Sequence record: PQ657772.1
Direction: 5' to 3' (one strand)
DNA length: 64,000 bases
Origin: Escherichia phage EC.P1
The position numbers and the translations under genes were made by a program. The notes beneath the pieces were generated by a model. That model did not search any database. It saw only the letters and a list, made by a program, of their open reading frames with translations, and had not been told where the DNA came from. This document shows, piece by piece, positions 11,996 to 16,793 of the stretch. Position 1 is the first letter of the stretch. Every line of letters begins with the position of its first letter.

Positions 11996-12202
11996 TTACT
12001 TCCTATATATAAGCATTAACATATAGTAGTACTGATTATGCTGTACATTCTCTTTAATATTATAAGGGTCTATAGCAATCTCGGTACATCTGTTAAATGC
12101 ATATCTATTAAATGCCAGTACTATTATAGATCTAATCCATGCTTGGTCAGTCGGTGGTAGTTTACTTATATAGTACTCTTTATAGTTTTTTATGTTCTGC
12201 AT
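11996..12202 (-). CDS. small paralog family member (KE(F/Y)Y N-terminus, hydrophobic C-terminus)
   Basis: MQNIKNYKEYYISKL...LMLIYRK. Confidence 0.6.
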   Translation of the reverse strand: MQNIKNYKEYYISKLPPTDQAWIRSIIVLAFNRYAFNRCTEIAIDPYNIKENVQHNQYYYMLMLIYRK

Positions 12203-12213
12203 AGTATACCTTA

Positions 12214-12405
12214 TTATTTCAAAGTACCATATAGTACTCTTAATAGGAAGTAGTACGTATTAGAGATATCATTACTAGTTAAAACAATCTTTGTACACAT
12301 ATTAAATTCGTATTGAGTCATTGCCAGGGGGATTAAATTGTTAACCCATGCTTGTTCGTTTTCTTTTAGTTTACTTATATAGAAATCTTTATGTTCTTTA
12401 TTCAT
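12214..12405 (-). CDS. small paralog family member
   Basis: MNKEHKDFYISKL... Confidence 0.6.
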   Translation of the reverse strand: MNKEHKDFYISKLKENEQAWVNNLIPLAMTQYEFNMCTKIVLTSNDISNTYYFLLRVLYGTLK

Positions 12406-12607
12406 ATAGGAATAGTATACCTATGATGCCGGAGTACATATTAGTACTGTTATTATTGTCGTTTGCGTTTAAAGTCATTTGAATACAATTATTGTAGCAT
12501 ACTCTGCCGAAATAAGTATCAGTACTTAAAGGTGCTGTAGTCCTTAGAAACATTTGTTCTGTGGGGCTGAGGTGTTTGGAATAGAATTCTTTATGTTCTT
12601 TATTCAT
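12398..12607 (-). CDS. small paralog family member
   Basis: MNKEHKEFYSKHL... Confidence 0.6.
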   Translation of the reverse strand: MNKEHKEFYSKHLSPTEQMFLRTTAPLSTDTYFGRVCYNNCIQMTLNANDNNNSTNMYSGIIGILFLYE

Positions 12608-12612
12608 ATTAG

Positions 12613-12798
12613 TTAGTGTCTGTATATAAGTAATAGTAAGAATACGTACTGCACCTGTTCATCTTTAGTATTGAGTACTGTACGTATTGCGTCATGGAAC
12701 AAGAATATAGTACTTGGGTCATTAGAATTTAAGGGGTTTACGGGGACGGCGTGTTTGTAGTTCCCTTTAACAAATTGTATATAGTATTCTCTATGCAT
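12613..12798 (-). CDS. small paralog family member
   Basis: MHREYYIQF...LLLLIYRH. Confidence 0.55.
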   Translation of the reverse strand: MHREYYIQFVKGNYKHAVPVNPLNSNDPSTIFLFHDAIRTVLNTKDEQVQYVFLLLLIYRH

Positions 12799-12799
12799 A

Positions 12800-12988
12800 T
12801 CAGTACCTATATATTAGGGCGAGAATGTAGTACAGTTTATATGTATTATAATCTGGGTTGATAGCACATAGTGTGTGGTAGTGGAATTGTTTGGTATTTT
12901 TCTTATCCTTGATATCTATTGGGTTTAGTGGTATAAGCATTTGGGAGTTTAGTTCCAGATGGTTTAAGTAGAATTCTTTGTTATTCAT
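12800..12988 (-). CDS. small paralog family member
   Basis: MNNKEFYLNHL...ILALIYRY. Confidence 0.6.
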   Translation of the reverse strand: MNNKEFYLNHLELNSQMLIPLNPIDIKDKKNTKQFHYHTLCAINPDYNTYKLYYILALIYRY

Positions 12989-13187
12989 AGAAGAATATTA
13001 GTCCCATTACGCCTGAGTACTGAATATTTTTGTTATTGTTTTCTAAAGCTTCTAGAGTAATACGTATACAATTATTAAAGCAATCTCTGGCGTGTGGTGA
13101 ATCTAAACGTAAAGGTGATACACTCCTTAGAAACATTTGTTCTGATGCACTGAGGTGTTTGGTGTAAAATTCTTTCTGTTCGTTCAT
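12981..13187 (-). CDS. small paralog family member
   Basis: MNEQKEFYTKHL... (close relative of 12398..12607). Confidence 0.6.
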   Translation of the reverse strand: MNEQKEFYTKHLSASEQMFLRSVSPLRLDSPHARDCFNNCIRITLEALENNNKNIQYSGVMGLIFFYE

Positions 13188-13197
13188 ATTGGCCTCT

Positions 13198-13386
13198 TTA
13201 GTACACGAAAGCTAGGTACAGTGTATGATACAGTACTCGATGATAGCTATCAAAATCTAGTATACATGCTTTAGTGCACATAGTAAAGTACACTTTATCG
13301 TTTTGAGCATTGATACCGCGAGGTTTATCTAATAGATTAGTACTGAGGTACATTGGGAAATATTTTGTGTAGTATTCTTTATGCAT
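13198..13386 (-). CDS. small paralog family member (start trimmed to MHKEYY)
   Basis: family N-terminus begins at internal ATG 13384-13386. Confidence 0.55.
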   Translation of the reverse strand: MHKEYYTKYFPMYLSTNLLDKPRGINAQNDKVYFTMCTKACILDFDSYHRVLYHTLYLAFVY

Positions 13387-13387
13387 A

Positions 13388-13576
13388 TTAGTACCTGAAT
13401 ATAAGTAGGATAGTGTTATATAATTGGTCATAGCTACTACTATTTTCTATACTGCGTTCTATGCAATTATTGAATCCCAGTACTGCCAAATCGTTATCCA
13501 GGGGGACTTTATATCTGGCGTAGTGTTCAAATATACTGGGGAGAAATTGTGTGTAGTATTCTTTGTGGTTGTTCAT
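13388..13576 (-). CDS. small paralog family member
   Basis: MNNHKEYYTQF...ILLIFRY. Confidence 0.6.
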   Translation of the reverse strand: MNNHKEYYTQFLPSIFEHYARYKVPLDNDLAVLGFNNCIERSIENSSSYDQLYNTILLIFRY

Positions 13577-13577
13577 A

Positions 13578-13769
13578 TTAGTACTTATATATTAGTAAAA
13601 GGATGTGATACAGTACTCGATTATAGTCTTCAATATATATCGAGGATTTAGTGCACTTAATGAAATAGTCTTTTTCGTAGTCTTTTTCTATACTCAATTG
13701 TTTTGTTGGTACAAGGTGTTGGAGATACATTGGGAGTTTCTCTATGTAGTATTCTTTGTGGTTATTCAT
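13578..13769 (-). CDS. small paralog family member
   Basis: MNNHKEYYIEKL...LLLIYKY. Confidence 0.6.
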   Translation of the reverse strand: MNNHKEYYIEKLPMYLQHLVPTKQLSIEKDYEKDYFIKCTKSSIYIEDYNRVLYHILLLIYKY

Positions 13770-15181: not shown

Positions 15182-15188
15182 GTCTACC

Positions 15189-15368
15189 TTAGATTAAGAT
15201 TAGTTTAAGTACTTCTCTGTACGTGTACTTTTCGTTTTGTGCTTCTACTGTACATGATAGTAGGTATCGTTTTTTATCTCTTTTGTTCCCGACTGTGTAG
15301 TACCTTTGGAATTTATTATAGTTGTATCTATCTTTGTGCTGGAGGTTATAGATATAGAATTCTTGCAT
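15189..15368 (-). CDS. small paralog family member (59 aa, absent from ORF track)
   Basis: hand translation MQEFYIYNL...YTYREVLKLILI. Confidence 0.5.
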   Translation of the reverse strand: MQEFYIYNLQHKDRYNYNKFQRYYTVGNKRDKKRYLLSCTVEAQNEKYTYREVLKLILI

Positions 15369-15376
15369 AGAGTACC

Positions 15377-15562
15377 TTATATTGCTATCAGTTTGAGTAC
15401 TTCAATATATGTGCGGTACTCTGCTTTAATTAAATTTGTACACACTGTAAGGGAATTTCTTTGTATAAGTTTATTGCCGCTTTTATACGCATTTCTCCAC
15501 ACATAGAGATGAGATCTTTCAGGCATAGATAGTTTATTTGTATAGTACTCAAATGTATTCAT
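15377..15562 (-). CDS. small paralog family member
   Basis: MNTFEYYTNKL...YIEVLKLIAI. Confidence 0.6.
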   Translation of the reverse strand: MNTFEYYTNKLSMPERSHLYVWRNAYKSGNKLIQRNSLTVCTNLIKAEYRTYIEVLKLIAI

Positions 15563-15570
15563 ATATTACC

Positions 15571-15753
15571 TCAAATAGAGATTAGTTTAAGTACTTCTCT
15601 GTATGTGTACTTTTCGTTTTGTGCATCTCTTGTGCTTGTATATAGGTATCCTCGACGATATTTGTTGCTCCCGTTCTTGTAGTTGAATTCGAACTTATTG
15701 TAGATGAATCTATCGCCAGGCTGTAATTTACTTAAGTACAATTCAATGCTCAT
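15571..15753 (-). CDS. small paralog family member (start trimmed to MSIELY)
   Basis: ...YTYREVLKLISI. Confidence 0.55.
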   Translation of the reverse strand: MSIELYLSKLQPGDRFIYNKFEFNYKNGSNKYRRGYLYTSTRDAQNEKYTYREVLKLISI

Positions 15754-15763
15754 AGTATTCTCT

Positions 15764-15949
15764 TTACATATCAATAAGTTTCAGTACTGCTCTGTACGTG
15801 TACTTAGTTGTTAGTGCTTCTTTTATAGCAATACAGAAGTAATGTTGTTTGTCTCTTATACTACCGCGTTTGTAGTACCATACATTGGAGTTGTGGGTGT
15901 ACTTGTCCCTGTCGGATAGATTTAGGTAATAGTATAATATATGATTCAT
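15764..15949 (-). CDS. small paralog family member
   Basis: MNHILYYYLNL...YTYRAVLKLIDM. Confidence 0.6.
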   Translation of the reverse strand: MNHILYYYLNLSDRDKYTHNSNVWYYKRGSIRDKQHYFCIAIKEALTTKYTYRAVLKLIDM

Positions 15950-16158
15950 GGTAATGTAATTAGCCTTATTATGTTAAAGTACTCGGTCCCTGGTACACCT
16001 TGTAGAATATTATCAACTACATTTTCTTGGTGCAGGATTAATACATTCGGTGCGGTTCTTTTAAGGTTTTTTAAAGTACTGTATTCTTGTTTAAGGATGA
16101 ACTGTACATCTTTAGGGAGAATATCTAAGTAGTACTGGTGTATGTTCATAGTTTTCAT
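15946..16158 (-). CDS. small paralog family member
   Basis: M(KTM)NIHQYYLDIL...IIRLITLP. Confidence 0.6.
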   Translation of the reverse strand: MKTMNIHQYYLDILPKDVQFILKQEYSTLKNLKRTAPNVLILHQENVVDNILQGVPGTEYFNIIRLITLP

Positions 16159-16169
16159 ATAGTACTCTT

Positions 16170-16355
16170 TTAGAACTTAAAGATGAGGTTCATGATAGAT
16201 AAGTACTTAGTTTCAGGAAATTGATGTTCTATTGCATAACGTGTCTCCAGTCTGAAGTCAAATTTATAAAAGGGACTATTCATATCCATAGGTTCATTGG
16301 GAAATGAATCTCTGTATTGTTTGTGCAGCTTACTACAGTAGAATTCTTTATACAT
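16170..16355 (-). CDS. small paralog family member
   Basis: MYKEFYCSKL...IMNLIFKF. Confidence 0.6.
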   Translation of the reverse strand: MYKEFYCSKLHKQYRDSFPNEPMDMNSPFYKFDFRLETRYAIEHQFPETKYLSIMNLIFKF

Positions 16356-16356
16356 A

Positions 16357-16569
16357 TTAGTGCTCGATTAAAAGGGTTAGGATGTAATAGTATTGCATAC
16401 TTTCTACCCCTTGTACAGCATTTCTTATTTTATTATTCCTGTACGAGTTCAAGAGTTTAGGACAATGTTTGAAGTTTATATAATTATTTTGTGTATACAG
16501 TAGGCTTTCTCGTAGACCTTTTGTTGGTAGTGCATCAATGTAGTACTGTTCAATGTTCATAGTGTTCAT
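16357..16569 (-). CDS. small paralog family member
   Basis: MNTMNIEQYYIDAL...ILTLLIEH. Confidence 0.6.
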   Translation of the reverse strand: MNTMNIEQYYIDALPTKGLRESLLYTQNNYINFKHCPKLLNSYRNNKIRNAVQGVESMQYYYILTLLIEH

Positions 16570-16793
16570 AGAGCTACCAGTACTAAGATTTTTGATAATT
16601 GTTTGTTTCTATCCCCGCAGATGTTGTTGTGTAAAATGCTCACTACAAGGGTATCAAGTGCATTGTTCAGCATAAGGTTACATCCAGTACTGTTATGTGT
16701 TTTTAGCTCAATTAGCCACGAACTATCCGCGAGAAACTTCGCGTACTCTAGTTCATTTAGAGTATTAATGTAGTACTTAAGTGCATTTGTCAT
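16566..16793 (-). CDS. small paralog family member (first gene of operon)
   Basis: MTNALKYYINTL...; promoter 16819-16847 upstream. Confidence 0.55.
   Translation of the reverse strand: MTNALKYYINTLNELEYAKFLADSSWLIELKTHNSTGCNLMLNNALDTLVVSILHNNICGDRNKQLSKILVLVAL

Follow-up and report, generated by a model that had tools for sequence, protein, structure and literature searches.

Organization of the small-gene array

The window analysed here is a stretch of 64,000 nucleotides from Escherichia phage EC.P1 (PQ657772.1), an Asteriusvirus, that is, a jumbo phage of the PBECO4/121Q type. Between positions 11996 and 16793, its minus strand carries 21 small ORFs of 59-75 aa, all of which were confirmed, and one unrelated ORF of 219 aa (ORF219; Table 1). 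The spacing of the 22 ORFs is -8 to +11 nt throughout, their junctions contain ribosome-binding sites or start/stop overlaps, and a promoter/terminator scan found no terminator-like site within the array. The small genes and the 219-aa gene form one co-oriented, translationally coupled unit. For m07, m11 and m16, internal ATG codons are the better starts, and they coincide with the annotations in related phages. An earlier note on this DNA had described a tightly packed, co-oriented run of small paralogous ORFs, three of them of 59 aa, and both points hold. Its size range of 59-70 aa is right at the lower end but is exceeded by m21, and its near-gapless run, correct as to spacing, is interrupted by ORF219, which it had missed. 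ORF219 matches PHROG 29152 and has no Pfam match; it is unrelated to the small proteins, comparison with the family giving an hhalign probability of less than 1%. A protein database search confined its homologues to the genus Asteriusvirus, and it is truncated in Salmonella phage SD-2_S15.

Table 1 Features of the array and its flanks (positions in the window)
Feature	Position	Strand	Description
Right boundary of ~21-kb direct terminal repeat	11673-11693	.	Ends of linear G17 and WPEC5 records map to 11693
Structured element	11860-11995	-	Directly 3' of m01; MFE -42.4 kcal/mol, z -4.93
m01	11996-12202	-	68 aa, subtype A; last gene of operon
m02	12214-12405	-	63 aa, subtype A
m03	12398-12607	-	69 aa, subtype A; closest paralog m06, 72% nt identity
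m04	12613-12798	-	61 aa, subtype A
m05	12800-12988	-	62 aa, subtype A
m06	12981-13187	-	68 aa, subtype A
m07	13198-13386	-	62 aa, subtype A; internal ATG
m08	13388-13576	-	62 aa, subtype A; dN/dS 0.07 (orthogroup M)
m09	13578-13769	-	63 aa, subtype A; AlphaFold2 model
m10	13778-13957	-	59 aa, subtype A
m11	13959-14141	-	60 aa, subtype A; internal ATG; 8-nt overlap with ORF219 stop
ORF219	14134-14793	-	219 aa; non-family gene inside operon
m12	14805-14984	-	59 aa, subtype B
m13	14993-15181	-	62 aa, subtype B
m14	15189-15368	-	59 aa, subtype B; AlphaFold2 model
m15	15377-15562	-	61 aa, subtype B
m16	15571-15753	-	60 aa, subtype B; internal ATG
m17	15764-15949	-	61 aa, subtype B (HMM/pairwise tests)
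m18	15946-16158	-	70 aa, subgroup C; probable member, leave-one-out E 0.029
m19	16170-16355	-	61 aa, subtype A; HMM A E 4.5e-10, leave-one-out E 9.8e-7
m20	16357-16569	-	70 aa, subgroup C; probable member, leave-one-out E 0.0077
m21	16566-16793	-	75 aa; first gene of operon, possible distant member
Shine-Dalgarno AGGAG	16802-16806	-	Strong ribosome-binding site, 8 nt upstream of m21 ATG; conserved in 8 phages
sigma70-type promoter	16819-16847	-	TTGACA, 17-nt spacer, TACTAT; palindrome CAGTACTG in spacer

Beyond the direct terminal repeat, at a distance of 303 bp, the operon forms the first unit of the unique sequence; such repeats have been reported (PMC6563267, PMC11895373). It adjoins, back-to-back in every phage examined, a divergently transcribed and equally expanded array of genes for RCC1-like virion proteins. 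The position next to the repeat and the old age of the paralogs (see below) are points beyond the earlier note.

In 8 PBECO4-type phages, the -35 and -10 elements of the operon promoter, their spacing and CAGTACTG are kept, with slight variation in the spacer and in one base of the palindrome. The window has 11 further promoter-like sites with the same spacer architecture. The placement of CAGTACTG in a promoter spacer is enriched 8-fold (P 2e-8); sigma70-type matches in the region are not enriched overall (31 found versus 35.4 expected in an in-silico scan). Each neighbouring RCC1-like virion gene is instead preceded by a -10-only element, unlike the promoter class of the operon. The 3' 75 nt of the structured element at the distal end are almost invariant in 8 phages, and its inner stem shows compensatory variants. 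The element has no Rfam match and is possibly a stabilizing 3' structure or a terminator.

A family of small proteins with a predicted helical fold

Leave-one-out HMM searches recovered 18 of the small proteins at E <= 1.4e-5, ranked top every time, whereas m18 and m20 were weakly linked and m21, when left out, was not matched by any HMM. These scores define 18 robust, two probable and one possible member among the about 21 paralogs counted earlier. The possible member, m21, aligns with m18 and m20 and has an N-terminal YY..L and a hydrophobic C-terminal helix; pairwise phmmer searches link m20 to m01 and m18, the m18-m20 link being about 1e-9. The proposal of at least two subtypes was borne out: A and B are collinear over their full length, along 54 columns (hhalign probability 83%, E 9e-6), and the HMMs of subtype A also detect m15 of subtype B (E 6e-3 and 7e-5). 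E-(F/Y)-Y has an invariant second Tyr, with Leu following at a distance of four residues, and the other shared motifs are a central F..C(T) and a C-terminal Y...L.LI, the latter in agreement with the hydrophobic C-terminal motif noted before. The KE(F/Y)Y signature ascribed to the whole family is real in subtype A but limited to it, subtype B having (Q/F)E(F/Y)Y or variants. Homology spans the full length and conservation is highest in the C-terminal helix. The similarity is not compositional: the subgroup HMMs matched 0 of 2,100 shuffled decoys.

As anticipated, the family resembles none that has been characterized: Pfam, NCBIfam, PADLOC and the PDB gave no match. The one match was PHROG 11711, which is functionally unassigned; it covers 12 of the 21 members (best E 1.9e-27), leaving out subtype B and subgroup C. 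We found no paper describing it in the literature, and this family of ~60-residue helical proteins is previously undescribed.

For both subtypes, the fold predicted by AlphaFold2 has four short helices packed into a compact bundle, with a pLDDT of about 90 and identical helix order. The model of m09, built from a mixed-family alignment, has a pLDDT of 90.5 and a pTM of 0.74; that of m14, built from a subtype-B-only alignment, has a pLDDT of 89.3. The predicted fold has no informative structural neighbour, and the N-terminal motif forms its first helix. The members are soluble, Tyr-rich proteins of about 60 residues that contain no transmembrane segment. Only the hydrophobic and aromatic core (E-Y-Y..L, F..C, Y...L.LI) is conserved, and almost all other positions vary.

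Selection, age and distribution

The members are real coding genes because each conserved residue is encoded by 2-5 different synonymous codons, decoys are not matched, and the pooled dN/dS of orthologs is 0.45 (pS 0.121, pN 0.057). The ORFs are intact, with frame and length preserved, in 9/9 phages compared. Being below 1, the pooled ratio gives no sign of gene-wide positive selection; it exceeds that of flanking genes (0.09-0.33) and is thus raised yet sub-neutral. Several orthogroups are strongly constrained (0.07-0.19), m21 (orthogroup A) has a value of 0.47, and only three orthogroups lie near 1. Selection on the family is purifying but relaxed, and the paralogs are individually retained. 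Copies are 26-57% identical in amino acids and even the closest pairs have a dS of 0.5 or more, which indicates that the paralogs are old rather than recently amplified, and argues for maintained diversity rather than dosage.

The database search proposed earlier found the family only in the genus Asteriusvirus. In a set of 1.84 billion representative proteins it accounts for 32 clusters, and tblastn matched 35 Escherichia and Salmonella phage records. Among nine phages compared, copy number ranges from 14 to 21 and the members fall into 37 orthogroups. Only the window and WPEC5 contain m02; m10 is missing from WPEC5, G17, 121Q and SD-2_S15; and the ortholog of m06, third in the array in other phages, is transposed in the window. 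Most members are 75-97% identical in SD-2_S15. The repertoire of JNE01 is almost completely different: its flanking terminal-repeat genes are 83-97% identical, whereas family members either reach no more than 57% identity or are absent. One 48-nt stretch shared by m16 and m14 is 96% identical, compared to 71% over the whole gene, and the most conserved DNA of the array lies at the gene junctions. Genes gained, lost or transposed, together with patchy gene conversion, account for the differing repertoires of the lineages.

Proposed function and alternatives

The earlier suggestion of host takeover or anti-defence fits the genomic context and is offered as a proposal; the context consists of the conserved promoter, the lack of any member in the phAPEC6 virion proteome, restriction to one genus, the varying repertoire and the raised dN/dS. 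We tentatively favour, at somewhat less than an even chance, a reading in which the members are accessory proteins, made early and not packaged in virions, that would bind targets in the host or its defences. Host RNA polymerase would transcribe the array as a single mRNA from the sigma70-type promoter, from which, as an in-silico prediction, we infer expression early in infection. The products would remain in the cytoplasm and not enter virions. On a common scaffold, each paralog would display a different surface and bind a different host or host-defence protein, which would be neutralized or redirected. If true, the array is an inherited set of binders with a part in determining the strains on which the phage can grow. 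Precedents are the diverse defence inhibitors among T4 internal proteins (PMC3012670) and the tandem amplification of tifA, a small T4 anti-toxin gene (bioRxiv 10.1101/2022.04.14.488369). Pfam, NCBIfam, PADLOC and PDB searches revealed no similarity to a known anti-defence or takeover protein, and the literature yielded no transcriptome, ribosome-profiling or infected-cell proteome of any Asteriusvirus.

It is rather unlikely that the members are injected internal proteins like T4 IPI, IPII and IPIII, loaded into the head and delivered together with the DNA to block host restriction, with the N-terminal motif as a capsid-targeting signal. The T4 proteins are small, vary greatly among related phages and share only a short N-terminal targeting sequence; of the products of the polymorphic T-even IP locus, at least IPI* serves specifically to inhibit a restriction enzyme of the host (PMC3012670, PMC9026906). 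Here too, a conserved N-terminal motif precedes divergent bodies in a hypervariable locus; the prohead protease of Asteriusviruses is T4-like, their virions contain an inner body, and the neighbouring RCC1-like proteins occur in virions (PMC7247149). However, the T4 internal proteins, which are abundant in virions, have only a cleaved propeptide of 10-19 residues in common, whereas the family is homologous over its full length, most strongly in the C-terminal helix. Its N-terminal motif is part of a confidently predicted fold, no conserved Glu-ending cleavage motif follows it in the alignment, and the operon promoter is not the virion-gene element. The 62 proteins identified in phAPEC6 virions include none of gp540c-548c and no annotated member, a weak negative given that only 8 members are annotated and 7-kDa proteins give few peptides; the study did detect a 4.7-kDa protein (PMC7247149).

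The two back-to-back arrays could instead mean a link to virion biology, with the members serving as folding, assembly or attachment factors or regulators of the RCC1-like proteins and both arrays expanding together. Both are hypervariable in JNE01, where RCC1 proteins are 24-31% identical; GAP32, with its single RCC1-like gene, has no such array in the 12.7 kb upstream of that gene (gp1); and the only family homologues found are in Asteriusvirus. We consider this partnership improbable: in SD-2_S15 the arrays have diverged independently (the first RCC1 gene is 25% identical, well below most family members), their transcription is divergent from differing promoter types, and virions in which RCC1-like proteins were detected yielded no family member.

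Similarly improbable are small nucleic-acid-binding regulators or DNA-structuring proteins, which might recognize the abundant CAGTACTG palindrome (57 occurrences versus 0.95 expected, including the spacers described above). Four strongly basic subtype B members (pI 9.4-9.6, net charge +4.5 to +5.6) would suit such binding, which has been proposed for the zinc-ribbon expansion of Bacillus phage G (PMC7824862). However, most members have a near-neutral or acidic pI (5.5-8.8), and the family alignment contains no conserved basic residues.

Equally doubtful is that the members are largely dispensable relics of duplication, under weak constraint and with little specific function. Their ready loss and a dN/dS above that of flanking genes, near 1 in three orthogroups, would agree with this; the intact, tightly coupled ORFs, a core conserved despite the age of the copies, the strongly constrained orthogroups and the confident models of both subtypes argue against it. 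That the ORFs are untranslated, as chance ORFs or a non-coding repeat, can be dismissed in view of the pooled dN/dS, the synonymous variation at conserved residues, the frame and length kept across nine phages, the translation signals at the junctions and the confident structure predictions.

Comparison with other expanded small-gene clusters

The host-takeover module of SPO1 and the pre-early genes of T5 are likewise clusters of numerous very small genes; their promoters are strong and of host type, and they are located at or close to a long terminal repeat. Those genes are not known to be mutual paralogs and lie within the repeat, whereas the present array begins outside it. The MGF110/360 families of ASFV and the host-range families of poxviruses are tandem paralogs by terminal repeats whose copy number and repertoire vary among isolates, as in the family described here; their proteins are much larger, act in different hosts and have no known sequence relationship to it. 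In the amplification of T4 dmd-tifA and the 'genomic accordion' of poxvirus K3L, a small early counter-defence gene with an upstream early promoter is present in tandem copies (bioRxiv 10.1101/2022.04.14.488369). Recombination at short junction homologies is the route to gain and loss there, and the well-conserved junctions of the family are comparable; the amplified copies, however, are recent, near-identical and serve dosage, whereas the family copies are old and individually maintained. Bacillus phage G encodes roughly 35 copies of a small, lineage-specific zinc-ribbon protein (PMC7824862). In both cases a very small protein of unknown function has multiplied to tens of paralogs within a single jumbo-phage lineage. 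The folds are unrelated: unlike the zinc-ribbon proteins, the members of this family are predicted to be all-helical, lack zinc ligands and are encoded in one contiguous operon.

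A tightly packed operon of divergent small paralogs

The operon consists of 21 small ORFs, named from m21 (first gene) to m01 (last gene), and a single ORF of 219 aa. Three start codons were shifted to internal ATGs, in agreement with the annotations of relatives, giving small proteins of 59–75 aa. All 22 genes point in the same direction and are spaced by only −8 to +11 nt. An AGG-type ribosome-binding site is present at about half of the junctions, and the others abut or overlap. The site is often formed by the final codons of the upstream gene, AGG TAC TAA, which specify a C-terminal Arg-Tyr and the stop.

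Pairwise phmmer comparisons divided the small proteins into subtype A (m01–m11 and m19) and subtype B (m12–m17), with a loose trio (m18, m20 and m21) separate from both. HMMs of the subgroups matched none of 2,100 shuffled decoys and found no further member in a six-frame translation of the window. When each member was left out of its HMM in turn, 18 were recovered with E ≤ 1.4e-5, m20 with E = 0.0077 and m18 with E = 0.029; m21 was missed. Profile–profile comparison connected subtypes A and B by a full-length, collinear link (probability 83%, E 9e-6), and subtype A and the trio by a weak one (E 1.8e-3). Conservation is limited to core residues: the second tyrosine of the E-(F/Y)-Y motif is invariant, and the remaining conserved positions (L+4, F..C and Y...L.LI) are hydrophobic or aromatic. 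Each of these remaining positions is encoded by 2–5 synonymous codons, and conservation therefore acts on the protein rather than on the DNA. This codon diversity and the unmatched decoys rule out a compositional artefact, the outcome that the earlier note had set against its own claim of about 21 tandem small paralogs with a KE(F/Y)Y signature. The claim is borne out; by these tests, 18 members are robust, two are probable and one is possible.

Twelve of the 21 proteins match PHROG 11711, which has no assigned function (best E 1.9e-27); the six proteins of subtype B and m18, m20 and m21 do not. Pfam, NCBIfam, PADLOC and PDB sequence profiles returned nothing meaningful for the family, in line with the initial impression that no known family was involved. 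In the literature on Asteriusvirus phages, we found neither a description of the family nor a transcriptome. This orphan family is new, and its operon of paralogs is unusually long.

The 219-aa ORF has no Pfam match. A lone weak HMM match to its C terminus (5.2 bits) raised the question of a fused or expanded family member. Membership was rejected by hhalign, which returned a probability below 2% with either the single sequence or a 12-sequence profile. The dN/dS of the gene is 0.47; its product is 39% identical between JNE01 and the window and is shortened to 137 or 120 aa in two Salmonella phages.

Features of the operon and its surroundings, in window coordinates
Feature	Position	Strand	Remarks
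Protein with Pfam DUF7249	9259-9498	minus	79 aa, in terminal repeat
Tandem array, 8-bp period	10791-10942		about 15 units
Terminal-repeat boundary	11673-11693		11693 directly follows GGCAGAGGAAGTCTGCC hairpin
Structured 136-nt element	11860-11995	minus	directly 3' of last operon gene, between operon and repeat boundary
Small-protein operon	11996-16793	minus	21 small ORFs and one 219-aa ORF
219-aa ORF	14134-14793	minus	inside operon; genus-restricted, PHROG 29152
Operon signals TTGACA, 17-nt spacer, TACTAT, AGGAG	within 16794-16896	minus	predicted sigma70-type promoter and ribosome-binding site
CAGTACTG, examples	16828-16835, 11307-11314, 10550-10557, 39598-39605, 54924-54931
RCC1-like (beta-propeller repeat) array	16897-33490	plus	about 13 paralogs, divergent from the operon
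Terminator and -10-only element, examples	18030-18112, 19210-19293, 25230-25316		upstream of RCC1-like genes
T4 late promoter core TATAAATA	46037-46044	minus	only copy in the window

Predicted fold and protein properties

Monomer structure prediction, suggested by the earlier note, was carried out with AlphaFold2 for one member of each subtype. The inputs were m09 (subtype A) with a 41-sequence family alignment and m14 (subtype B) with an alignment of subtype B only. Both yielded confident four-helix models with a pLDDT of about 90 (m09: pLDDT 90.5, pTM 0.74, helices 3–9, 14–17, 30–45 and 49–62; m14: pLDDT 89.3, pTM 0.71, helices 2–7, 11–26, 29–43 and 46–58). The order of the four helices is common to the two models. 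They differ in the second element, which in subtype B is a long helix and in subtype A a short helix with a proline-containing loop. The N-terminal motif forms helix 1 of the predicted fold, with a pLDDT of 81–87 over the first 10 residues. Foldseek found no match in the PDB, and its matches in BFVD were the family's own members only; the predicted fold is without an informative neighbour.

Tyrosine makes up 10.4% of the family's residues, compared with 4.9% in the other large ORFs of the window. The isoelectric points span 5.5–9.6, and four members of subtype B are strongly basic. A role as nucleic-acid-binding regulators, a reading with some support, would suit these four better than the members at the acidic end of the range. 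Membrane proteins such as holins or exclusion proteins can be dismissed: there is no transmembrane segment (maximal 19-residue Kyte–Doolittle mean 1.13), and the mostly negative GRAVY values and the globular models also oppose this reading. The family thus consists of small, soluble, helical proteins.

Like the zinc-ribbon expansion of phage G, the array comprises many small paralogs in a single lineage, here with 14–21 copies per genome and in Asteriusvirus only. The phage G proteins are zinc ribbons with paired cysteine ligands, whereas the proteins described here contain 0–2 cysteines and are all-helical in the models. Expansions of this sort, in which small accessory genes of a large phage multiply within one lineage, are a known kind of phenomenon.

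A genus-restricted family with a variable repertoire

Region 11900–16900 is 87–99% identical to 35 Escherichia and Salmonella jumbo phages of 310–386 kb, the closest being phage ECO103 4-12-1 (98.6%). The matched records that carry a taxonomy place these phages in the genus Asteriusvirus (PBECO4/121Q type), and all matched phages have the genes under the match annotated as hypothetical protein. Asteriusviruses are being advocated as therapeutic agents against pathogenic E. coli, and more than 80% of their genes are without known function.

Searching 5.8 billion clustered proteins with a profile yielded 48 clusters of the family; 32 clusters, all of 41–75 aa, came from 1.84 billion representatives searched exhaustively with an HMM. 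Matches in tblastn searches with divergent representatives were confined to Escherichia and Salmonella phages of Asteriusvirus. Neither the 1.84 billion representatives nor a set of 50,697 phage records yielded a homologue from outside the genus. In the related phage GAP32, a matching array is absent from the 12.7 kb upstream of gp1.

Within the genus, the repertoire varies between lineages. The nine arrays compared resolve into 37 orthogroups; members have been gained and lost, and the m06 position in the window and WPEC5 differs from that elsewhere. JNE01 carries 14 members, each less than 60% identical to every member in the other phages. Between JNE01 and the window, the flanking terminal-repeat genes are 83–97% identical, and the family proteins are either undetectable or no more than 57% identical. 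The products of the neighbouring RCC1-like genes are 24–31% identical in JNE01, as they are in Salmonella phage SD-2_S15. Two sequence features bear on how the repertoire may have changed. The m14 and m16 genes are 96% identical over a 48-nt stretch, compared with 71% over the whole gene, which points to gene conversion between them. The gene junctions are the most conserved DNA of the array and offer sites at which unequal crossing-over could add or remove whole genes.

Age and selection

All nine phages compared have kept 14–21 intact members on one strand. Pooled over 23 orthogroups, dN/dS is 0.45 (pS 0.121, pN 0.057), with values from 0.07 to 1.06 for individual orthogroups; the flanking genes range from 0.09 to 0.33, and the first RCC1-like gene has a value of 0.14. 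The closest paralog pairs show a dS of 0.51–0.69 and 44–57% amino-acid identity, and the remaining pairs are saturated. We conclude from the intact members, the dN/dS and the dS values that the array is old and that its members are individually maintained. That they are weakly constrained relics has some support; it would fit the highest ratios better than the intact state of the array in every phage. Recent tandem amplification of the 'accordion' or dosage type is ruled out by the dS values: such amplification leaves near-identical recent copies, which are absent here. Recent substitutions between orthologs fall at positions 2–51 and spare the C-terminal helix, the most conserved part of the protein.

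Predicted promoter of the operon and the divergent RCC1-like genes

The only sizeable non-coding gap upstream of the operon contains its predicted promoter and AGGAG signals, which are kept in eight PBECO4-type phages. The tightly packed genes lie behind this conserved, predicted promoter of host type. Its spacer contains the palindrome CAGTACTG, an 8-mer that is present 57 times in the window, where 0.95 copies would be expected. Twelve of the 57 copies lie in a fixed register within a sigma70-like promoter, compared with 2.6% of random positions, and the resulting arrangement, TTGACA-N8-CAGTACTG-TATAAT, is 8-fold enriched (P 2e-8). The pattern suggests either an operator site or a class of promoters specific to the phage.

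Upstream of every RCC1-like gene lie a hairpin terminator formed by the same motif (CCAGTACTnnAGTACTGG and a T-run) and, after it, a conserved −10-only element, aaatatagTATAATgaataaaggagg. This arrangement makes each gene look like a transcription unit of its own, with a different class of promoter. A T4-type late promoter upstream of the neighbouring genes was rejected, as its core TATAAATA has just one copy in the window; with 12.7 copies expected, the core is strongly avoided.

Possible functions

The operon would be transcribed early as one mRNA, and its products, probably cytoplasmic, may bind varied host or defence proteins. The family has no homology to any known counter-defence inhibitor, and such binding is proposed purely by analogy: with the diverse inhibitors among T4 internal proteins (PMC3012670, PMC9026906), with the tandemly amplifiable T4 anti-toxin gene tifA (bioRxiv 10.1101/2022.04.14.488369) and with lineage-specific small-protein expansions in jumbo phages (PMC7824862).

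Injection as internal proteins has some support, and the comparison with T4 bears directly on it. T4-type internal proteins carry a cleavable N-terminal capsid-targeting propeptide of 10–19 residues, whereas the N-terminal motif of this family is helix 1 of the predicted fold. T4 internal proteins share only the targeting sequence and have unrelated mature parts; homology in this family is full-length and collinear. No conserved Glu-ending motif follows the N-terminal motif, but the protease specificity of Asteriusvirus may differ from that of T4-type phages. The proteins could instead be partners of the RCC1-like virion proteins, a reading that also has some support; the two arrays are divergent neighbours, and both differ strongly in JNE01. 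The phAPEC6 virion proteome comprises 62 proteins, eight of them RCC1-like (PMC7247149). Absent from these 62 are gp540c–548c, but the phAPEC6 annotation includes only eight members of the family, and the proteins are as small as about 7 kDa. If the proteins were virion- or RCC1-associated, they would offer insight into two unusual features of Asteriusviruses, the hairy virion and the inner body.

Returning to host or defence targets, we offer a more specific reading as a tentative one that we consider rather unlikely. The array may be a germline repertoire on a miniature tyrosine-rich four-helix scaffold, with about 20 binders, each for a different defence or host factor, and the carried set as a main determinant of strain range. 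Such a repertoire would have diversified by duplication, unequal crossing-over at the conserved junctions and gene conversion. Among bacteriophages it would then correspond to the multigene families at the termini of large eukaryotic DNA viruses, and it would yield many new inhibitor–target pairs.

The locus is compact and clearly bounded, and its approximately 20 related small proteins differ between otherwise near-identical phages. This makes it among the most tractable in the group for seeking host-range or counter-defence determinants. Because the proteins share one tiny scaffold with variable surfaces, each target found would also show how a minimal fold can be retuned for specificity.

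The adjoining terminal repeat

In the linear records of G17 and WPEC5, the right end maps to window position 11693 in both cases and matches the record's own left copy, at 20,668 and 21,662 bp, respectively. Terminal repeats of about 20 kb have been reported for G17 and Sharanji (PMC6563267, PMC11895373). Window positions 1–11693 therefore lie inside a direct terminal repeat of about 21 kb. The operon, the first unit of unique sequence, ends 303 bp outside this repeat, in contrast to the early takeover clusters of SPO1/T5 type, which lie within theirs. Such clusters are also marked by a host-type (sigma70) promoter and early transcription; the conserved, predicted TTGACA-17-TACTAT upstream of the operon may be a promoter of this kind.

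The 136-nt element is strongly structured (MFE −42.4 kcal/mol, z −4.93). The 75 nt at its 3' end hardly vary, even in the divergent JNE01, and its inner stem shows compensatory variants (AACAATT/AATTGTT, AACATAT/ATATGTT and AACATCT/AGATGTT). Rfam has no family in the window, this element included.

Near the end of the terminal repeat, the ORF-poor stretch of about 10600–11990 holds the tandem 8-bp array (CGTCTAGC, CATCCAGC, CGTTTAGC and further units), and promoter-like CAGTACTG sites are dense there. In phage 121Q, a comparable gap of about 2 kb contains no genes. The DUF7249 protein (E 3.6e-11) contrasts sharply with the array next to it, being 95–97% identical throughout the genus, JNE01 included.
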